DNA of 64,000 nt, from the NCBI GenBank assembly GCA_004551865.1, contig SFPR01000002.1:874-64873 (forward strand). Direction: 5' to 3'. The stretch is from Bacteroidales bacterium. GTDB taxonomy: Bacteria > Bacteroidota > Bacteroidia > Bacteroidales > P3. Positions 16,659 to 60,142 of the stretch are shown one piece after another. A program made the position numbers and the translations under genes. The notes under the pieces were generated by a model. That model did not search any database and was not told the origin of the DNA. It saw nothing but the letters and a program-made list of their open reading frames with translations. Position 1 is the stretch's first letter. Each line of letters starts with the position of its first letter.

Positions 16659-17191
16659 TGACACTTCCAAACAATCTCCAAATCGTTTGATTTCCAAAAG
16701 AATTAATTTAACATTTGAAGTCGTTGTTATTTAACTCAAATTAAATTATGCCTTGGGGGGGTATTAAGAAAGTGCTTAGTAGAGTTATTAACATTTAAGG
16801 GTAATTACAAATTCGGGCTGTTGATAACAAAGGAACTTTCTATTTATTGGTTCATTTTTAACATTTCAAGAGCGATTTTTTGTGCCGATTTTTCGCCATT
16901 TAGACCTCATTTGACGCAAAAAATCATCATTTTGACAGCAAAAATCACCATTTTTGACACCCGCTTTTGCCCTTTTTCTGCAAAAATTGATTGGGCGAAT
17001 AGGAGGTTATAGGTAGTTTATAGGGCTTCTATGGGGTCTATGACCTGATATGTTGGTTCGATAAAAACAGAATAGCAAAAGACATCGACAGAGGCTTTGT
17101 ATTTTCTCTATCAAAGAGATTTTGTGATTGTTGTTTCTTACTTTTTGTTCAACCCTCGGGCTGAAAAATGCAATTTTCATGGCAAAGCACG

Positions 17192-17460: not shown

Positions 17461-17799
17461 TCAGCTGTATTGAGCTTGCAGGCTTGCCGTTCGGGCTTGC
17501 CGTTCTTCGCTCGCTCTTTGTTCAGCAGCTCTCATACAATCGTTGTATTGAGTTTGCAGATTGAGCAAAGTGATTGCAGAAATACCGAGTATGCTTTCAA
17601 TCTTTTCGGCTGTCGGTTTGTTCAGCGGTCGTTTACCCTTTATCAATTCATTCAAATGCGACCTCTGCATACCAATCATGATTGCAAAATCCTTTTGGGA
17701 AATTGCTCTTTCTTCCAATTCGTACCCCAAGATGCAACCCGGATGTGTTGCTTTCCAAGGTGTCATGTTTTCATTTCTTGTTGCCATAGTGGTCTTCAT
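17461..17799 (-). CDS. higA: HigA-family antitoxin (XRE helix-turn-helix)
   Basis: THPGCILGYELEERAISQKDFAIMIGMQRSHLNELIKGKRPLNKPTAEKIESILGI is a typical HigA/VapI HTH. Alternative ATGs at 17787 and 17766; the last removes the overlap with the toxin gene. Confidence 0.85.
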   Translation of the reverse strand: MKTTMATRNENMTPWKATHPGCILGYELEERAISQKDFAIMIGMQRSHLNELIKGKRPLNKPTAEKIESILGISAITLLNLQTQYNDCMRAAEQRASEERQARTASLQAQYS

Positions 17800-18094
17800 T
17801 TAATTCTATCAACGTTATCTCCAATCCGGTCTCGGTTTCTCTGAACAACAACCTTTCGACCCTGCTGTTAAACACCCGAACAGAGCTTAACGATATGTGT
17901 TTCAACTGTTCGTAGTGAAGAAAACTATATTGCCTCAACTGTGAGACGTGTTCCAATGCACACATCAAGTTATATATGTCGGTCAGTTTTTGTACAAATT
18001 TCTTGTCTTTGGCAATCTTCTTATATCTTCCTGCATTCCTGCCGCAGAGAATAAGTTCTCGCAAGTCATCGTCTGCTATCTCTACCTTTATCAC
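17771..18094 (-). CDS. higB: HigB/RelE-superfamily toxin (plasmid maintenance system killer-like)
   Basis: 107 aa with a GTG start. The C-terminal ...LHYEQLKHISLSSVRVFNSRVERLLFRETETGLEITLIELNEDHYG resembles the HigB pattern. The gene lies immediately upstream of higA (toxin-first order typical of higBA). Confidence 0.7.
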   Translation of the reverse strand: MIKVEIADDDLRELILCGRNAGRYKKIAKDKKFVQKLTDIYNLMCALEHVSQLRQYSFLHYEQLKHISLSSVRVFNSRVERLLFRETETGLEITLIELNEDHYGNKK

Positions 18095-18192: not shown

Positions 18193-18241
18193 TGATAATC
18201 GGATTATAAAACAATTTTTTTGCTTGATAATCGGATTATCA
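18193..18241. repeat. palindrome array 1: TGATAATCGGATTATA, an A/T tract, then TGATAATCGGATTATCA
   Basis: Two 7-3-7 dyads read directly from the sequence. Same family as the arrays at 27019, 36796, 50769 and 59813. Confidence 0.85.
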
Positions 18242-27018: not shown

Positions 27019-27169
27019 CGATTATCAACAATTATTACACCTTGATAATCGGATTATCTTCTCATGATAATGGTATTATCTTGGCGTGATAATGGTATTA
27101 TTTTCCCATGATAATCGGATTATCACGGCGTGATAATCCGATTATCAACAAAAAATTTTTTGATAATCA
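27019..27169. repeat. palindrome array 2: six units of TGATAAT-(CGG/GGT/CCG)-ATTATCA
   Basis: Units read at 27043-27058, 27065-27080, 27087-27102, 27109-27125 and 27131-27147, with half-sites at 27019-27030 and 27161-27169. Linkers are TTGGCG and CGGCG. Confidence 0.9.
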
Positions 27170-29797: not shown

Positions 29798-31129
29798 TCA
29801 GGAGAGCGAAAGGTAGAAAAACTTTGACAATTCTTCCCAATAGTTTGGAAAAGACTTCTCTACACAGTCGGGATTTTTGATGATAACTTTTTCATAGACC
29901 GAAGCGAAAAGAGACATTGCCATTGCAAATCGGTGATCGTTGTAACTATCTGTTTCCAAGACCTTTTTGTTGTCAAATAAAGAGGTTTCATACTCATAAA
30001 TCGCCAACGAAGAAGCATCGGAGTGCAATTTGAAACCAATTTTCTTCAACTCTGCAACAATGTTTCCCAAGCGGTCGGATTCTTTGTGGACAAGAGTATC
30101 AAGACCCTTGTATTCAAATGGTTGCCTCAAACAAATAGCCGTTACGACAAGCGGAAGAAACAAATCGGGGCAGGATTTGAAATCTATTGTTGCCACATTG
30201 TTGTTCTCTCTGCTTGCTTTTGAGTAAGAAAGCAAAGCATAATTGTCTGCAAACAAAGTCTTTACTCCGAAAAACTGCTCAAAAAACACCCTTACGACGG
30301 CATCTCCCTGCAATGATTTGGCTCTCAGACCTTTTATTTTGAGCGAAGGGAGCTTCAAAAGTGCCACAAGAGCATAGGCAAAGGCTGCCGCCGACCAGTC
30401 GGCTTCCACTTCAAAGTCTTTGAACTTGTATCCTACAGGGCTAATTTGCAGATTGTTATCCGACAAGCTCATTTCTGCTTCGCAATCTCTCATAAGAGAA
30501 AGCGTCATATCAATATACGGCTTTGAAACTTGGGCATCTGACAAACTGATACTCAGACCTTTTTGAGTATATGGAGCAATCATTGCCAAAGCACTTACAA
30601 ACTGGCTGCTGTAATTTGCCGGCAGAGTGATACAATCTCCTCCCGAAAGAGGTTTACCACTGATTTTCAGAGGGAAAATACGTCCCGAACCTGCAATTTC
30701 AATATCTGCACCCAAGCGTTTCAAAACATCTGTCAGAGGCATGAGCGGTCGATGTTCCATTCTCTCGTCCGCCCTTATCAACCACTTGCCGTAAGTGATT
30801 GAAAGCAAGGCTATAAGAAAGCGACAAGTCGTTCCTGCATTTTTACAGTCAAGTTCGACAAAACTATCTCGCCTGATGCTTGAAACCATTCGCCGTTTTG
30901 TCGGAATAAAACGGCGTTTTGTCAAAATAATCCGCCGTTTTATTTCAGCCAAATGGCGTTTTAGCAAGAGGGTATCGTCAGACGATGACAAATTGCTTAT
31001 TTTCAGCTCACTGTCTGCAAGAAAACGAATGATGAGAAGGCGATTGGAAATACTCTTTGAGCTTGGCAGTGAAAAAGAAAAGTCATCTTGCGGTTTTCGT
31101 CTGCCGATTGTTGCAAACAAATGCGTCAT
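29798..31129 (-). CDS. aroA: 3-phosphoshikimate 1-carboxyvinyltransferase (EPSP synthase) carrying an in-frame repeat-derived insertion
   Basis: 443 aa. LPSSKSISNRLLII, SSSDDT, KNAGTTCRF and ...ESDRLGNIV..., NDHRFAMA motifs. An extra basic segment, EIKRRIILTKRRFIPTKRRMVS, lies between the DDT and NAGT motifs. Confidence 0.85.
   Translation of the reverse strand: MTHLFATIGRRKPQDDFSFSLPSSKSISNRLLIIRFLADSELKISNLSSSDDTLLLKRHLAEIKRRIILTKRRFIPTKRRMVSSIRRDSFVELDCKNAGTTCRFLIALLSITYGKWLIRADERMEHRPLMPLTDVLKRLGADIEIAGSGRIFPLKISGKPLSGGDCITLPANYSSQFVSALAMIAPYTQKGLSISLSDAQVSKPYIDMTLSLMRDCEAEMSLSDNNLQISPVGYKFKDFEVEADWSAAAFAYALVALLKLPSLKIKGLRAKSLQGDAVVRVFFEQFFGVKTLFADNYALLSYSKASRENNNVATIDFKSCPDLFLPLVVTAICLRQPFEYKGLDTLVHKESDRLGNIVAELKKIGFKLHSDASSLAIYEYETSLFDNKKVLETDSYNDHRFAMAMSLFASVYEKVIIKNPDCVEKSFPNYWEELSKFFYLSLS
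30885..30965. repeat. GCCGTTTT/AAAACGGC hairpin-type repeat embedded in the aroA coding sequence
   Basis: CGCCGTTTTGTCGGAATAAAACGGCGTTTTGTCAAAATAATCCGCCGTTTTATTTCAGCCAAATGGCGTTTT. It shares the 17-mer CGTTTTGTCGGAATAAA with the intergenic repeat at 61684. Confidence 0.8.
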
Positions 31130-36291: not shown

Positions 36292-36678
36292 TCATTCGGC
36301 AGAACCGAACATCGATTGTCTTATCTTGGCAAATTTCTCCATTTGTTTGTCGGAATAGAATAGTTTTTTGTCGATTGATTTGAGAAACAGCAGGTCTTTC
36401 ACATTTCTTTCTTCTCTGTTGCAAGCCACAACGCCCGAAGACACAAGGTTTTTGTCCTTGTCGAGCATCGCATAGCACAAAACACCTTCGCTGTTTGCCA
36501 AAAGCGTATAACCATCGGAACTTTCGCACCACGAAACCACCTCATCGCCCTTCAATATATAGGTAAGCACTCTTCCGTCGGGCTGAGTTATCGTTATCGG
36601 TGTTTGCTTTGCAGGCACGGCAAGAAGACTCTCGAAAGCAAACAAAGTAAATATCAAAATCAAAACAATTTTCCGCAT
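36292..36678 (-). CDS. 128-aa secreted protein resembling the N-terminal module of larger Bacteroidales secreted proteases
   Basis: The ATG at 36678 gives MRKIVLILIFTLFAFESLLAVPA, then TQPDGRVLTYILKGDEVVSWCESSDGYTLL. It has its own -7 box at 36711. Confidence 0.45.
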   Translation of the reverse strand: MRKIVLILIFTLFAFESLLAVPAKQTPITITQPDGRVLTYILKGDEVVSWCESSDGYTLLANSEGVLCYAMLDKDKNLVSSGVVACNREERNVKDLLFLKSIDKKLFYSDKQMEKFAKIRQSMFGSAE

Positions 36679-36710
36679 ATACTTTCCTTGTTTGAATATC
36701 ATTCAAGTTG

Positions 36711-36795: not shown

Positions 36796-36908
36796 GATTA
36801 CCAAAAATTTTTTCTTGTTGATAATCGGATTATCAAGGCGTGATAATGGTATTATCATGGGAAGATAATCAGATTATCACGCCGTGATAATGGTATTACC
36901 ACGCCTTG
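36796..36908. repeat. palindrome array 3: half-site plus A/T tract, then four 7-3-7 dyads nested in a larger inverted repeat
   Basis: Units at 36819-36835 (TGATAATCGGATTATCA), 36841-36857 (TGATAATGGTATTATCA), 36863-36879 (AGATAATCAGATTATCA) and 36885-36901 (TGATAATGGTATTACCA). The flanks CAAGGCG...CGCCTTG are themselves inverted. Confidence 0.9.
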
Positions 36909-37042
36909 AAGTAAGTTGAAAATCCTTTTTTTACGGTCTTCAAACTTGGAATGTTTTCGGCAATACACCACAATGCTGCGATATATGGCTGTTTTGGAAA
37001 ATTCAATCAATGTTTTGCGAAAACATAATCGTGAATTTTCGC

Positions 37043-42478: not shown

Positions 42479-42714
42479 CAACTTTTCTTCCGCCTACGCA
42501 AAGAATTTCTTTCTGCATACAACAGACTTTTTTGCAGGTTTAATGCCATAAAATCAACATTTGGGGTTATTGTTTTCGGGAACAGGATTATAAAATTAAA
42601 GTGTTGTTATGCTAAATTGGGGATTGGACAAAGTGTTAAGCTGTGAAATTCATCGGAGTTTTGATGTATTTTGAGCAAAATCGTGGAGTTTTTGAGCAAA
42701 TGTAGGAGTTTGAT

Positions 42715-42960
42715 TGAAAGAAATCGCCGCCTTTTCACAAAAAATCGCCACTTTTTTGGGAAAAACCGCCGCTATTTTTCAAAAAAGTCGGCGTTTTGAA
42801 AGGAACAAAACGGCGTTTCAAAACGACAAAACGCCGTTTTATTTTTGCAAATCGGCGTTTTGTCGGCTCGAAACGCCACAAAAGAGCATTTTGTCGGCGT
42901 TTTATTTGGGCAATTCTTGCAGACAGAGTAAGGAAAGGCGAAAAAATCGCCTTATTTCGA
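42715..42960. repeat. dense block of alternating GCCGTTTT / AAAACGGC bricks
   Basis: AATCGCCGCCTTTT, AATCGCCACTTTTTT, ACCGCCGCTATTTTT, GTCGGCGTTTTG, AAAACGGCGTTTC, AAAACGCCGTTTTATTTTT, ATCGGCGTTTTGTCGG, GTCGGCGTTTTATTT and AATCGCCTTATTT were read in series. Confidence 0.8.
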
Positions 42961-50532: not shown

Positions 50533-50594
50533 CAAACCCGGATTGTTCAACCTGCCGATTTTTGCAAGACAAAACGCCCTTTCGCTGAAACAAC

Positions 50595-50630
50595 TCGCCG
50601 TTTCATCAAGCTGAAACGGCGATTTATTTT
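50595..50630 (+). terminator. terminator TCGCCGTTTCA-tcaagc-TGAAACGGCGA followed by TTTATTTT
   Basis: 11-bp perfect stem plus a T-rich tail, about 60 nt after the stop at 50532. Confidence 0.7.
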
Positions 50631-50768
50631 GCCCGAACGCCTAACTATTCCGCCACAAATGCCGACTTTGTAAAGTATTTTCAAGCAAAAAACCACCTTT
50701 GTAAATAATTGATTTTCAAAAATCTTCATTTTACTCCCCAAAAATCGCCGTTTTGGTTTGCGAAGCAG

Positions 50769-50917
50769 GATTACCAAAAAAATTTCTTGTTGGTAATAGG
50801 ATTACCAGCCTCATGGTAATAGGATTACCTTGGCGTGGTAATACCATTACCAAGCCGAAAAAAATTTTGGTAATACCATTACCAAGCCGAAAAAAATTTT
50901 GGTAATACCATTACCAA
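50769..50917. repeat. palindrome array 4: variant dyads TGGTAAT-(AGG/ACC)-ATTACCA, including a 32-bp tandem duplication
   Basis: Units at 50791-50807, 50814-50829, 50836-50852, 50869-50884 and 50901-50917. GGTAATACCATTACCAAGCCGAAAAAAATTTT is repeated exactly at 50837-50868 and 50869-50900, with a partial third copy. Confidence 0.9.
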
Positions 50918-53050: not shown

Positions 53051-53977
53051 TTATTTGAGCCTGCTGCGTTTCAAAAGATAGGGCAGCAATACTTGGTCAA
53101 ATCCTTTGTTTATATCTGCTTGAACGAAGTCGGTTTGCAGATTGTTGCATTGAGTTTTTATTTGTGTTACCAACTCTTGCATCTTTTGGGAGTAGTGTTC
53201 TTTGAGTTGAAGCGGCGTGGCTTTGATTTGCTCTCCTGTTTCCATGTCGATAAACCTTCGGGGAGAGTTGTCAAAGTTCAATTCTATCTCTTTGTCTTTG
53301 TCGCATACATGAAACAAAATAACTTCGTGTTTGTTGTATCGGAGATGTTGAAGAGCATTGGTGAAGCCGTTTGTGTTATCGACAAGGTTCATAAGGTCGG
53401 TAAATATTATAATGAGGCTCCGCTTGTGAACACATTCTGCAATCTTGTGAAGAGCTTCCGCAATGTTTGTGTGGCGGTTGTACTCTGCTTTCTTCGATAG
53501 GAGCTGTTCCAAAAGCGTAAACATACTCTGTCTGTGAGCAAAACTCGTTTTTATGTCGGTGAGCTGCCTGATTGTATCATCTACAAGACTTATACCGAAA
53601 GCGTCTCTCTGCTTGTAAAACAAATGACAAAGACAGCCCGAAGCATAAAGGGAAAAGGTTAGTTTGTCGGGACTTTCAAACGTGCGTGCCTTGCCGAGAG
53701 GGAAATACATTGAAGACGATGTATCCACAACCAAAAGACATCTGAGATTGGTTTCTTCTTCGTACTTTTTCACAAACAGCTTGTCGCTTTTTGCATAAAG
53801 TTTCCAATCAATATGCTTTGTCGAGTCTCCTTGATTGTACAATCTGTGTTCGGCAAACTCGACCGAGAAACCATGAAACGGACTTTTGTGCAAGCCGCTC
53901 ATAAATCCCTCTACAATTTTTCTTGTTTTGAACTCGAGAGAGTTGTATCGTGAAAATTGTTCAATCTCTCCTGCCAT
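53051..53977 (-). CDS. DUF58-family protein (MoxR-associated family, vWA-like)
   Basis: ATG at 53977 (the track start is a TTG). The motif GLHKSPFHGFSVEFAEHRLYNQGDSTKHIDWKLYAKSDKLFVKKYEEE is characteristic of DUF58. Confidence 0.8.
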   Translation of the reverse strand: MAGEIEQFSRYNSLEFKTRKIVEGFMSGLHKSPFHGFSVEFAEHRLYNQGDSTKHIDWKLYAKSDKLFVKKYEEETNLRCLLVVDTSSSMYFPLGKARTFESPDKLTFSLYASGCLCHLFYKQRDAFGISLVDDTIRQLTDIKTSFAHRQSMFTLLEQLLSKKAEYNRHTNIAEALHKIAECVHKRSLIIIFTDLMNLVDNTNGFTNALQHLRYNKHEVILFHVCDKDKEIELNFDNSPRRFIDMETGEQIKATPLQLKEHYSQKMQELVTQIKTQCNNLQTDFVQADINKGFDQVLLPYLLKRSRLK

Positions 53978-59720: not shown

Positions 59721-59762
59721 AAAACGGCGTTCTGCACAGAGCAGAACGCCGTTTTGTTTTTG
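59721..59762 (+). terminator. terminator AAAACGGCGTTCTGC-acaga-GCAGAACGCCGTTTT followed by GTTTTT
   Basis: 15-bp perfect stem, 37 nt after the rnfE stop, followed by a T-tract. Confidence 0.85.
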
Positions 59763-59812
59763 TGAAAAGGCGTTTTGGCAGAATAACTCGCCGATTTATT
59801 TTGCCAAACACA

Positions 59813-59883
59813 GGATTATCAAAAAAATTTTGGCTTGATAATCCGATTATCAATAAGAAAAAAATTTGATAATCCTATTATCA
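59813..59883. repeat. palindrome array 5: half-site plus A7T4, TGATAATCCGATTATCA, an A/T tract, then TGATAATCCTATTATCA
   Basis: Units at 59836-59852 and 59867-59883, ending ACCGCAAGG as in array 4 (ACCGCAAAAG). Confidence 0.9.
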
Positions 59884-59960
59884 ACCGCAAGGAGTTAGGA
59901 AAAGAGTGTACAAATCGAAGAAAAAAACGAACGCTTTTGCCATTCAATTTTTACCAAACC

Positions 59961-60000
59961 AAAATAGGCAGTCCTATGACGTCATAGGACTGCCTATTTT
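59961..60000. repeat. perfect 40-bp palindrome AAAATAGGCAGTCCTATGAC|GTCATAGGACTGCCTATTTT
   Basis: 20-nt arms with no loop and a TGACGTCA centre. The A4/T4 flanks give it the form of a bidirectional terminator. Confidence 0.85.
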
Positions 60001-60142
60001 TCTGAGCAATTTTATATAGAAGGTGCAAAAGCGTCCCTCCAAAACAGACTTTGAAAACCTCTACTTGGCGTTTTATCCGACAAATTTCACGCTTAACCGA
60101 ACAAAAACGCCGAAAATCTATTGCAAAATCGAAAAACATTTG

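Follow-up and report, generated by a model that had tools for sequence, protein, structure and literature searches.

Phased palindrome arrays between the genes of a Bacteroidales genome and their candidate partner, the DUF6078 protein family

The 64,000-nucleotide stretch of Bacteroidales DNA analysed here, which is referred to as the window (contig SFPR01000002.1), has a G+C content of about 42% and encodes GldN, Porin_10, a type IX secretion system (T9SS) C-terminal sorting domain and Rnf. Five arrays of a short palindrome lie between its genes, and these arrays, together with the DUF6078 (PF19555) genes beside which such arrays recur in other Bacteroidales, are the subject of this study. 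The first-pass annotation of the window had described five intergenic arrays of a palindrome with 7-bp arms and a 3-nt spacer (7-3-7). This description was borne out by a scan of the window with the sequence TGRTAATNNNATTAYCA, which gave 17 matches at ≤1 mismatch against 0.05 expected from 100 dinucleotide-preserving shuffles; an 18th unit, with 2 mismatches, was located at 27087. When up to 3 mismatches were allowed, only chance-level matches were obtained in the 64 kb outside the five loci. The unit is TGRTAAT-N3-ATTAYCA, and its spacer is 3 nt in all 18 copies. All five arrays are intergenic, and their density in the window is about one per 13 kb (Table 1).

The distance from one unit to the next is mostly exactly 22 bp, and 31-32 bp where an A/T tract sits in the linker. 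The program Tandem Repeats Finder (TRF) likewise assigned a period of 22 bp to arrays 2 and 3 and one of 32 bp to the latter half of array 4. The linkers had been read as 5-8 nt long; they measure 5 nt or, where an A-tract is included, 14-15 nt, and the two classes differ by about 10 bp. When the spacings of the window were pooled with those of 'Bacteroidales bacterium MAG187' (hereafter MAG187), whose contigs are 88-93% identical to the window, 52 were of 22 bp, 13 of 31-33 bp and one of 23 bp. The 22 and 31-33 bp spacings correspond to about two or three helical turns. In TRF many arrays score better at a 44-bp (or 66-bp) period than at 22 bp (for example window 27043-27146 and the DUF6078 loci L107, L114, L121, L124, L148, L173, L196 and L199); since their linkers alternate, arrays seem to grow by duplication of two- or three-unit blocks.

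The other features read from the letters alone were mostly recovered. Arrays are opened by a half-site and an A/T tract (GGATTAYCA-A6-8T3-4), arrays 4 and 5 are followed by a closing ACCGCAA(A/G)G, and the linkers of array 3 (AGGCG/TGGGA/CGCCG/CGCCT) produce an outer inverted repeat, CAAGGCG...CGCCTTG. The five loci had been placed correctly, but the elements are slightly larger once their terminal half-sites are counted, and Table 1 gives these extents. The view that the arrays are a dispersed intergenic repeat family rather than an insertion sequence (IS), a CRISPR array or a coding feature was supported as well. CRISPR arrays have unique spacers of about 26-72 bp, and the linkers in the window are only 5 or 14-15 nt long. 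A search of the whole window against Rfam at gathering score returned tRNA-Glu as the sole match, and a search around array 5 and the module behind it in E-value mode returned sub-threshold noise only.

Table 1. Palindrome elements and other repeats in the window
Feature	Position	Strand	Units	Composition	Flanking genes
Element 1	18193..18241	no strand	18193-18241 (n=2)	TGATAATCGGATTATAA and TGATAATCGGATTATCA, 32 bp apart, A/T-tract linker	tandem; upstream of HTH_3 gene pair 17461-18094 (-)
Element 2	27020..27168	no strand	27043-27147 (n=5)	five units, 22-bp period, then A6T6 tract; terminal half-sites GATTATCA (27020-27027) and TGATAATC (27161-27168)	convergent; Porin_10 (+) and SpoU methylase (-)
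Element 3	36796..36908	no strand	36819-36901 (n=4)	half-site GATTACCA and A5T6 tract, then four units, 22-bp period; without far-end terminus	divergent; signal-peptide ORF 36292-36702 (-) and EamA transporter (+)
Element 4	50767..50916	no strand	50791-50916 (n=5)	AGGATTACCA and A-tract, five G/C-variant units TGGTAAT-N3-ATTACCA spaced 23, 22, 32 and 32 bp, then ACCGCAAAAG	convergent
Element 5	59810..59883	no strand	59836-59883 (n=2)	ACAGGATTATCA and A7T4 tract, then two units 31 bp apart	tandem; downstream of rnfA (+)
Tail module	59884..60034	+		~150 bp, ACCGCAAGGAG... / ACCGCATGGAGTGCAGAAAAGAGTGTACAAATCGAAG..., accompanies some elements	
Second repeat family	30891-30941, 42738-42841, 50590-50766, 59745-59809			~21-bp tandem/dispersed intergenic repeat	

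DUF6078 genes and the arrays beside them

When 84 array-bearing loci were compared by all-against-all clustering of their open reading frames (ORFs, ≥100 aa), the only family that recurred was a DUF6078 protein of about 145 aa, encoded 20-100 bp from an array in 9 genomes. The reverse test started from 80 metagenome loci that had been chosen only for the similarity of their protein to DUF6078. The results showed a TRF-detectable array of 21-23-bp period within 400 bp of the gene at 46 of the 80 loci, downstream of it in 41/77 and upstream in 4/78, and the background elsewhere in these loci was 3 such arrays in 242 kb. Degenerate phased half-sites were seen in several of 12 TRF-negative loci that were inspected, and each of 10 further DUF6078 loci obtained by other routes carried an array, often within 25 bp after the stop codon. 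Across Bacteroidales, with Bacteroides finegoldii and Parabacteroides distasonis among them, gene and array make up a conserved cassette of two parts.

Of the 42 distinct unit consensuses, 33 have a period of 22 bp, six of 23 bp and three of 21 bp. Their half-sites differ from lineage to lineage (TGGTAAT, TGATAAT, GTTTCAT, GTCTCAA, CTACCAC, GTACCAA, TTGTACT, TTTCTC and others). The 11-bp offset between inverted hexamers is automatic for a palindrome that recurs every 22 bp, and was not counted as independent evidence.

In MAG187, a typical element lies 74 bp upstream of the DUF6078 gene (locus L061). A 97%-identical DUF6078 protein, P0001, is encoded on the Logan contig SRR20337165_189306 (L194), which begins 79 bp upstream of its gene. 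From these two genes we infer that DUF6078 is also present in the genome of the window. The ORF at 36292-36702 (-) beside array 3 was considered as a DUF6078 gene and rejected, because it encodes an unrelated signal-peptide protein. The contig that carries P0001 starts where an array would be expected, and the repeats may break short-read assemblies.

The family comprises about 1,400 clusters (50% identity, E ≤ 0.001), and the best 150 of these matches are mostly 135-160 aa in length, cover the full profile and have no evident extra domain. Four cysteines are invariant (C27, C32, C38 and C67 in the numbering of the L061 protein) and probably form a zinc-binding site. Arg or Lys is conserved at about eight positions, Y104, Y110, Y137, Q125 and D142 are also conserved, and the median pI is 8.8. 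There is no conserved HUH motif. AlphaFold2 supplied with a 57-sequence alignment gave a model with pLDDT 90 and pTM 0.78, compared with pLDDT 47 for the single-sequence model.

The gene occurs in the order YitT, DUF6078, LepA in the window's clade. Its other contexts are diverse, among them a ribosomal-protein operon that adjoins topoisomerase IV, the inside of a bacteriophage exclusion (BREX) locus and a polysaccharide utilization locus (PUL). At 22 of 93 loci, DUF6078 and array are followed by a gene for a 600-700-aa protein in which a primase-polymerase (PrimPol) domain of the BT4734-like family, a recognised family of archaeo-eukaryotic primases (AEP) (PMC5862659), is joined to a VapE/D5-like helicase and DUF3874; no relevant paper on DUF3874 in Bacteroides was found. 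Such loci often lie in or beside restriction-modification or BREX islands, and the primase-helicase gene is found neither in the window's clade nor by any of the five window arrays. Phage and plasmid collections are nearly devoid of DUF6078 (a single IMG/VR locus, and a few 'plasmid' or 'phage' records that are doubtful), and a phage or plasmid origin of the family was rejected for this reason.

Two observations on these contexts are recorded here. At 979-17667 of L197 (CAYPUJ010000002.1), DUF6078 and its array are inside a BREX locus, between pglX and pglZ, and the same locus also holds DUF3791/DUF3990 and an SLFN/AlbA_2-Fic gene. Cassettes of DUF6078 with the PrimPol/helicase gene lie at the borders of restriction-modification islands of type I, type II and DpnII (L185-L187 and L193).

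Conservation, dispersal and turnover of the arrays

Outside the window, one genome per species was scanned for two adjacent units, which gave at least 103 loci. Among the matches listed, only Bacteroidales have genuine arrays, with 3-12 units repeated at exactly 22 bp, and the matches in other phyla are single and chance-like. The carriers are Ca. Onthomorpha spp., MAG187, Prevotella dentasini, P. brunnea, P. falsenii, Hoylesella saccharolytica, Segatella baroniae and several uncultured Bacteroides, Parabacteroides and Prevotella bins. The repeat is very common between genes in Bacteroidales, the dominant order of the human and animal gut. Across genera the unit has a near-invariant core, consisting of G2, T4, A5, A6, T7 and their mirror positions, and at 3/15 the window's clade has A/T and Prevotellaceae have G/C (TGGTAAT). 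The hexamer cores (TGRTAA/TTAYCA) and the 22-bp phase are kept across genera, while the 3-nt loops and 5-nt linkers vary freely. Arrays in Prevotellaceae open with a lone ATTACCA and close with a lone TGGTAAT, and the best description of the array is therefore a series of inverted half-sites, set apart by 3-nt and 5-nt spacers in turn. All of the 70 arrays in the loci of related genomes are intergenic. Compared with the background of convergent, divergent and tandem gene pairs (69, 65 and 250), arrays are enriched between convergent (17) and divergent (16) genes, with 18 between tandem ones.

In the window's clade the elements are about 70-150 bp in size and have inverted ends. In MAG187 and the window one end reads (C)AGGATTATCA-A6-8T3-4-xGGCT, the opposite end reads ACAAG-A6T4-TGATAATCCTG, and most copies of both have the terminal inverted repeats (TIRs) of a transposable element of the miniature inverted-repeat type (MITE), CAGGATTATCA-A6-8T3-4 ... 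A6T4-TGATAATCCTG. These inverted ends are the array's own terminal half-sites, joined through the 14-15-nt A-tract linker. Copies at different loci have in common the order of loop variants (CGG-GGT-GGT-CNG-CCG), the order of linker variants and the ends, which indicates that whole elements were copied and did not grow independently.

A comparison with a close genome, which the first-pass annotation had suggested, revealed differences in presence and absence between the window and MAG187. Two were found within about 16 kb of aligned sequence: a three-unit element of MAG187 lies at a site that is empty in the window (46708/46709), and array 4 of the window is missing from the orthologous MAG187 region. 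Array 2 is orthologous in the two genomes. Differences affect 1 of 76 positions in its cores, 7 of 73 in the rest of the element and 9 of 116 in the intergenic flanks; the difference between core and non-core is significant (Fisher p = 0.03), and the half-site cores are under purifying selection. Dispersal is lineage-specific, as four 20-kb loci from other lineages carry the gene-adjacent array only. In L184, from a relative of the window's clade, a second array lies 4 kb from the gene-adjacent one. The half-site of the gene-adjacent array is the same as that of the dispersed copies both in MAG187 (TGATAAT; L061) and in L184 (TGGTAAT).

To see how the two arms vary together, pairs of mirrored positions were counted in Ca. 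Onthomorpha. At positions 3/15 there were 90 A-T, 16 A-C, 10 G-T and 1 G-C pairs, where about 1.6 G-C pairs would be expected under independence. Compensated pairs amounted to 1/27 at 3/15 and to none at 6/12 and 7/11, and Prevotellaceae behaved alike. That mirrored variants are uncompensated argues against selection for a hairpin and for the reading of half-sites on duplex DNA. Together with the conservation of the arm sequence, the selection on the cores and the difference of about 10 bp between linker classes, it makes reading from one face of the duplex a better fit than an RNA or single-stranded DNA (ssDNA) structure.

Interpretation of the arrays

We favour, at a probability of roughly 0.55, the reading that a DUF6078-family protein has a cognate array of DNA sites, of which the five arrays are dispersed copies. 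The small, basic, four-cysteine protein would bind the half-sites as a dimer and, once bound, would oligomerise along the array, with successive dyads presented on one face of the duplex. The founding copy would be the array of the cassette that it forms with the gene across Bacteroidales. In the window's clade (MAG187 and Ca. Onthomorpha) and in some Prevotellaceae, whole framed arrays would then have been copied to many intergenic sites, in a spread resembling that of MITEs or of repetitive extragenic palindromic (REP) sequences and the REPINs formed from them. Binding by DUF6078, the role of the bound arrays and the enzyme that copies them are the putative parts of this scheme. Three ideas had been put forward at the start. 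A site array for a dimeric protein and an element like a MITE, a REP or a bacterial interspersed mosaic element (BIME) both survive, and they may be two sides of one thing, because the array is conserved beside DUF6078 genes and yet has spread in the clade as a polymorphic element with inverted ends. The reading as a structured hairpin is weakened by the uncompensated arms.

Several observations weigh against the reading that we favour. The 64-kb window holds no DUF6078 gene, and binding of the arrays by the protein is suggested by their association. No recognisable DNA-binding or catalytic domain was found in DUF6078, in which only PF19555 was matched and for which NCBIfam, PHROGs and PADLOC gave nothing significant; nor was a structural neighbour found by Foldseek against PDB and BFVD or by a profile (HMM) search of PDB sequences. 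In most lineages the array is 3' of the gene, in the window's clade 5' of it, and this does not point clearly to one regulatory logic. Protein identity was not significantly correlated with the sharing of array 6-mers in a crude Mantel test (rho 0.14, p 0.12), and we therefore claim lineage-specific half-sites but not co-evolution of protein and site. Moreover, TGGTAAT can be the half-site of proteins that share just 28% identity. As to a target-site duplication, the flanks are A-rich and show no consistent direct repeat, and the divergence between filled and empty sites is too great for one to be defined.

A bolder proposal, which we put forward tentatively, is that DUF6078 and the phased array might constitute a new self-propagating protein-DNA cassette. 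A Cys4 DNA-binder of novel fold would either copy the arrays, as a non-HUH analogue of REPINs and their REP-associated tyrosine transposases (RAYTs), or recruit the PrimPol-helicase. If this is true, the hundreds of arrays would be non-autonomous progeny that form a genome-wide binding landscape. Independently of this proposal, the link between gene and array gives DUF6078 a testable function, the binding of a defined 22-bp-phased site, and gives the repeats a candidate partner. The partnership, if confirmed, would bear on genome plasticity and assembly breaks in gut metagenomes, on promoter and terminator architecture at hundreds of loci, and on the PrimPol-helicase islands that carry defence systems.

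The arrays could instead be an ordinary MITE with an internal minisatellite, moved in trans by an unrelated transposase, for which the flank of DUF6078 is an old, tolerated insertion site. The inverted ends (CAGGATTATCA-A/T tract ... A/T tract-TGATAATCCTG), the presence/absence polymorphism and the strictly intergenic position, enriched between convergent and divergent genes, would suit such an element, and one of like architecture exists in the same order. BrickBuilt of Porphyromonas gingivalis is a strictly intergenic MITE built on a 23-nt tandem minisatellite of variable copy number, with about 19 copies per genome, and its leader and tail segments have inverted ends whose TIRs match IS5-family elements, GAGACCTTTGCA; its repeats are not described as palindromic and no partner gene is reported for it (PMC4596501). 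Our arrays are like BrickBuilt in their Bacteroidales host, their intergenic position and a minisatellite framed by inverted ends. Their sequence, however, is unrelated, and their ends, compared by the published TIRs, are a half-site and an A/T tract and not IS5-like GAGACCTTTGCA. What look like TIRs in our elements are merely an array half-site and an A-tract, they come without a target-site duplication, and no IS with ends matching CAGGATTATCAAAA was found in the loci covered. A RAYT-like or other mobilising gene had also been proposed as something to look for, but no such gene and no other transposase-like ORF recurs among the 84 array-bearing loci, which set the extent of this comparison. 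DUF6078 genes with quite different half-sites and in unrelated contexts still carry an array of their own, which an incidental insertion site fails to explain. We consider this alternative rather unlikely.

Arrays of tandem sites phased by helical turns and adjoining the gene for a small DNA-binding protein are also known from iteron origins and centromeres (plasmid Rep-iterons, ParR-parC and omega-heptads). Sites of 17-22 bp phased at 22 bp with an A/T-rich tract alongside are the classical layout of an iteron origin. The arrays could thus belong to the origin or partition system of an integrated element, with DUF6078 as origin- or centromere-binder and the dispersed copies as orphaned or decoy iterons. 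The 22-bp-phased sites beside an A/T-rich tract agree with this, as does the PrimPol and VapE/D5-like helicase gene after the array in about a quarter of the DUF6078 loci (the 22/93 above), and one DUF6078 member resembles the primase zinc finger of herpes UL52 in a weak match below threshold. Yet about three quarters of the loci have no primase-helicase neighbour and lie among housekeeping genes, and the family is almost absent from plasmid and phage collections. Our arrays are chromosomal and dispersed, their half-sites are inverted and not direct, and a density of one array in about 13 kb of chromosome is unlike origins. No NTPase of the ParA, ParM or TubZ type is nearby, and DUF6078 is unrelated to ribbon-helix-helix (RHH) or Rep folds. 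An origin or partition function is, in our judgement, unlikely.

If the arrays acted as REP/BIME-like structural elements, their hairpins in RNA or ssDNA would serve as stabilisers of 3' untranslated regions, as terminators or as substrates of an enzyme that recognises hairpins. The arms of 7 bp are perfect, many arrays are at the 3' ends of genes, and array 3 as ssDNA has a predicted fold of -26.3 kcal/mol (z = -6.5), although this is no more than any palindrome yields. Against such structures, A-C mismatches are as frequent as G-T pairs among the uncompensated mirrored variants, the stem sequence itself and not pairing alone is kept across genera, arrays between divergent genes are as frequent as those between convergent ones, and neither an Rfam match nor a recurrent HUH/Y1 (RAYT) gene was found. 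We regard this explanation as improbable. Much further down is the idea of operator or titration arrays for Fur, PerR or Zur. It arose from the half-site, since the Fur box is a 7-1-7 palindrome with half-site TGATAAT/ATTATCA, and in the window's clade the heptamer is identical. In our arrays, however, the spacer is 3 nt rather than 1, the units stand in tandem and most genera, including the sister genera, have TGGTAAT. At 2 mismatches a single 7-1-7 match is present in the window where 0.27 are expected, which is no enrichment, and the neighbours of the arrays are unrelated to metal homeostasis, with DUF6078 and not a Fur-family gene as the recurrent partner. The link to Fur and PerR was accordingly given up and the Fur-box reading rejected as very improbable.

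The system closest in logic appears to be REP/REPIN-RAYT, although its defining tests failed here, there being no HUH-Y1 protein and no hairpin covariation. Like the REP/BIME and REPIN-RAYT systems of Proteobacteria, the arrays consist of short palindromic units clustered between genes in many copies per genome. A cognate gene for a small protein is flanked by the repeat, apparently once per genome in the sampled loci and in ordinary chromosomal contexts, and the repeat sequence differs between protein lineages. On the other hand, the partner here is a four-Cys DUF6078 protein without HUH-Y1 motifs and not an IS200-like transposase, there is no 5' tetranucleotide of the GTAG type, the 22-bp phasing is strict, and arms without compensatory evolution make the recognition of half-sites on a duplex more likely than that of a hairpin. 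Full-text literature searches turned up no REP/RAYT-like repeat-protein system for Bacteroidales and no paper that mentions DUF6078/PF19555 or the unit sequences. This suggests that the partner family is wholly uncharacterised and that its partnership with the repeat has not been described before.

Other repeats and genes near the arrays

The tail module behind element 5 holds a perfect hairpin with a 20-bp stem (59961-60000) and runs of A and T on either side, and looks like a bidirectional terminator. A diverged copy follows array 4 (50917 to about 50960). MAG187 has copies of the tail both with arrays (L007, L022, L039 and L023) and without (L047, 7739-7841), and the tail is therefore probably a module separate from the arrays.

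The gene pair beside array 1 had been taken for a toxin-antitoxin module. Only its helix-turn-helix domain was confirmed, in a 112-aa protein of the HTH_3/Xre type whose gene overlaps a 107-aa ORF without a family.

The second repeat family of Table 1 is rich in CGCCGTTTT/AAAACGGCG and TTATTTTGCCAAA and its copies frequently adjoin palindrome elements on their left side, so as to form a BIME-like mosaic. Between array 3 and the EamA gene there is a 22-bp tandem repeat, TGTTTTGGAAAACACAATCAA, with a palindrome of its own (36990-37030, 1.9 copies). Unrelated tandem repeats with a period of 20-22 bp are found at 16910-16959, 42669-42711 and 53423-53464, and the genome of the window seems unusually rich in intergenic minisatellites of about 21 bp.

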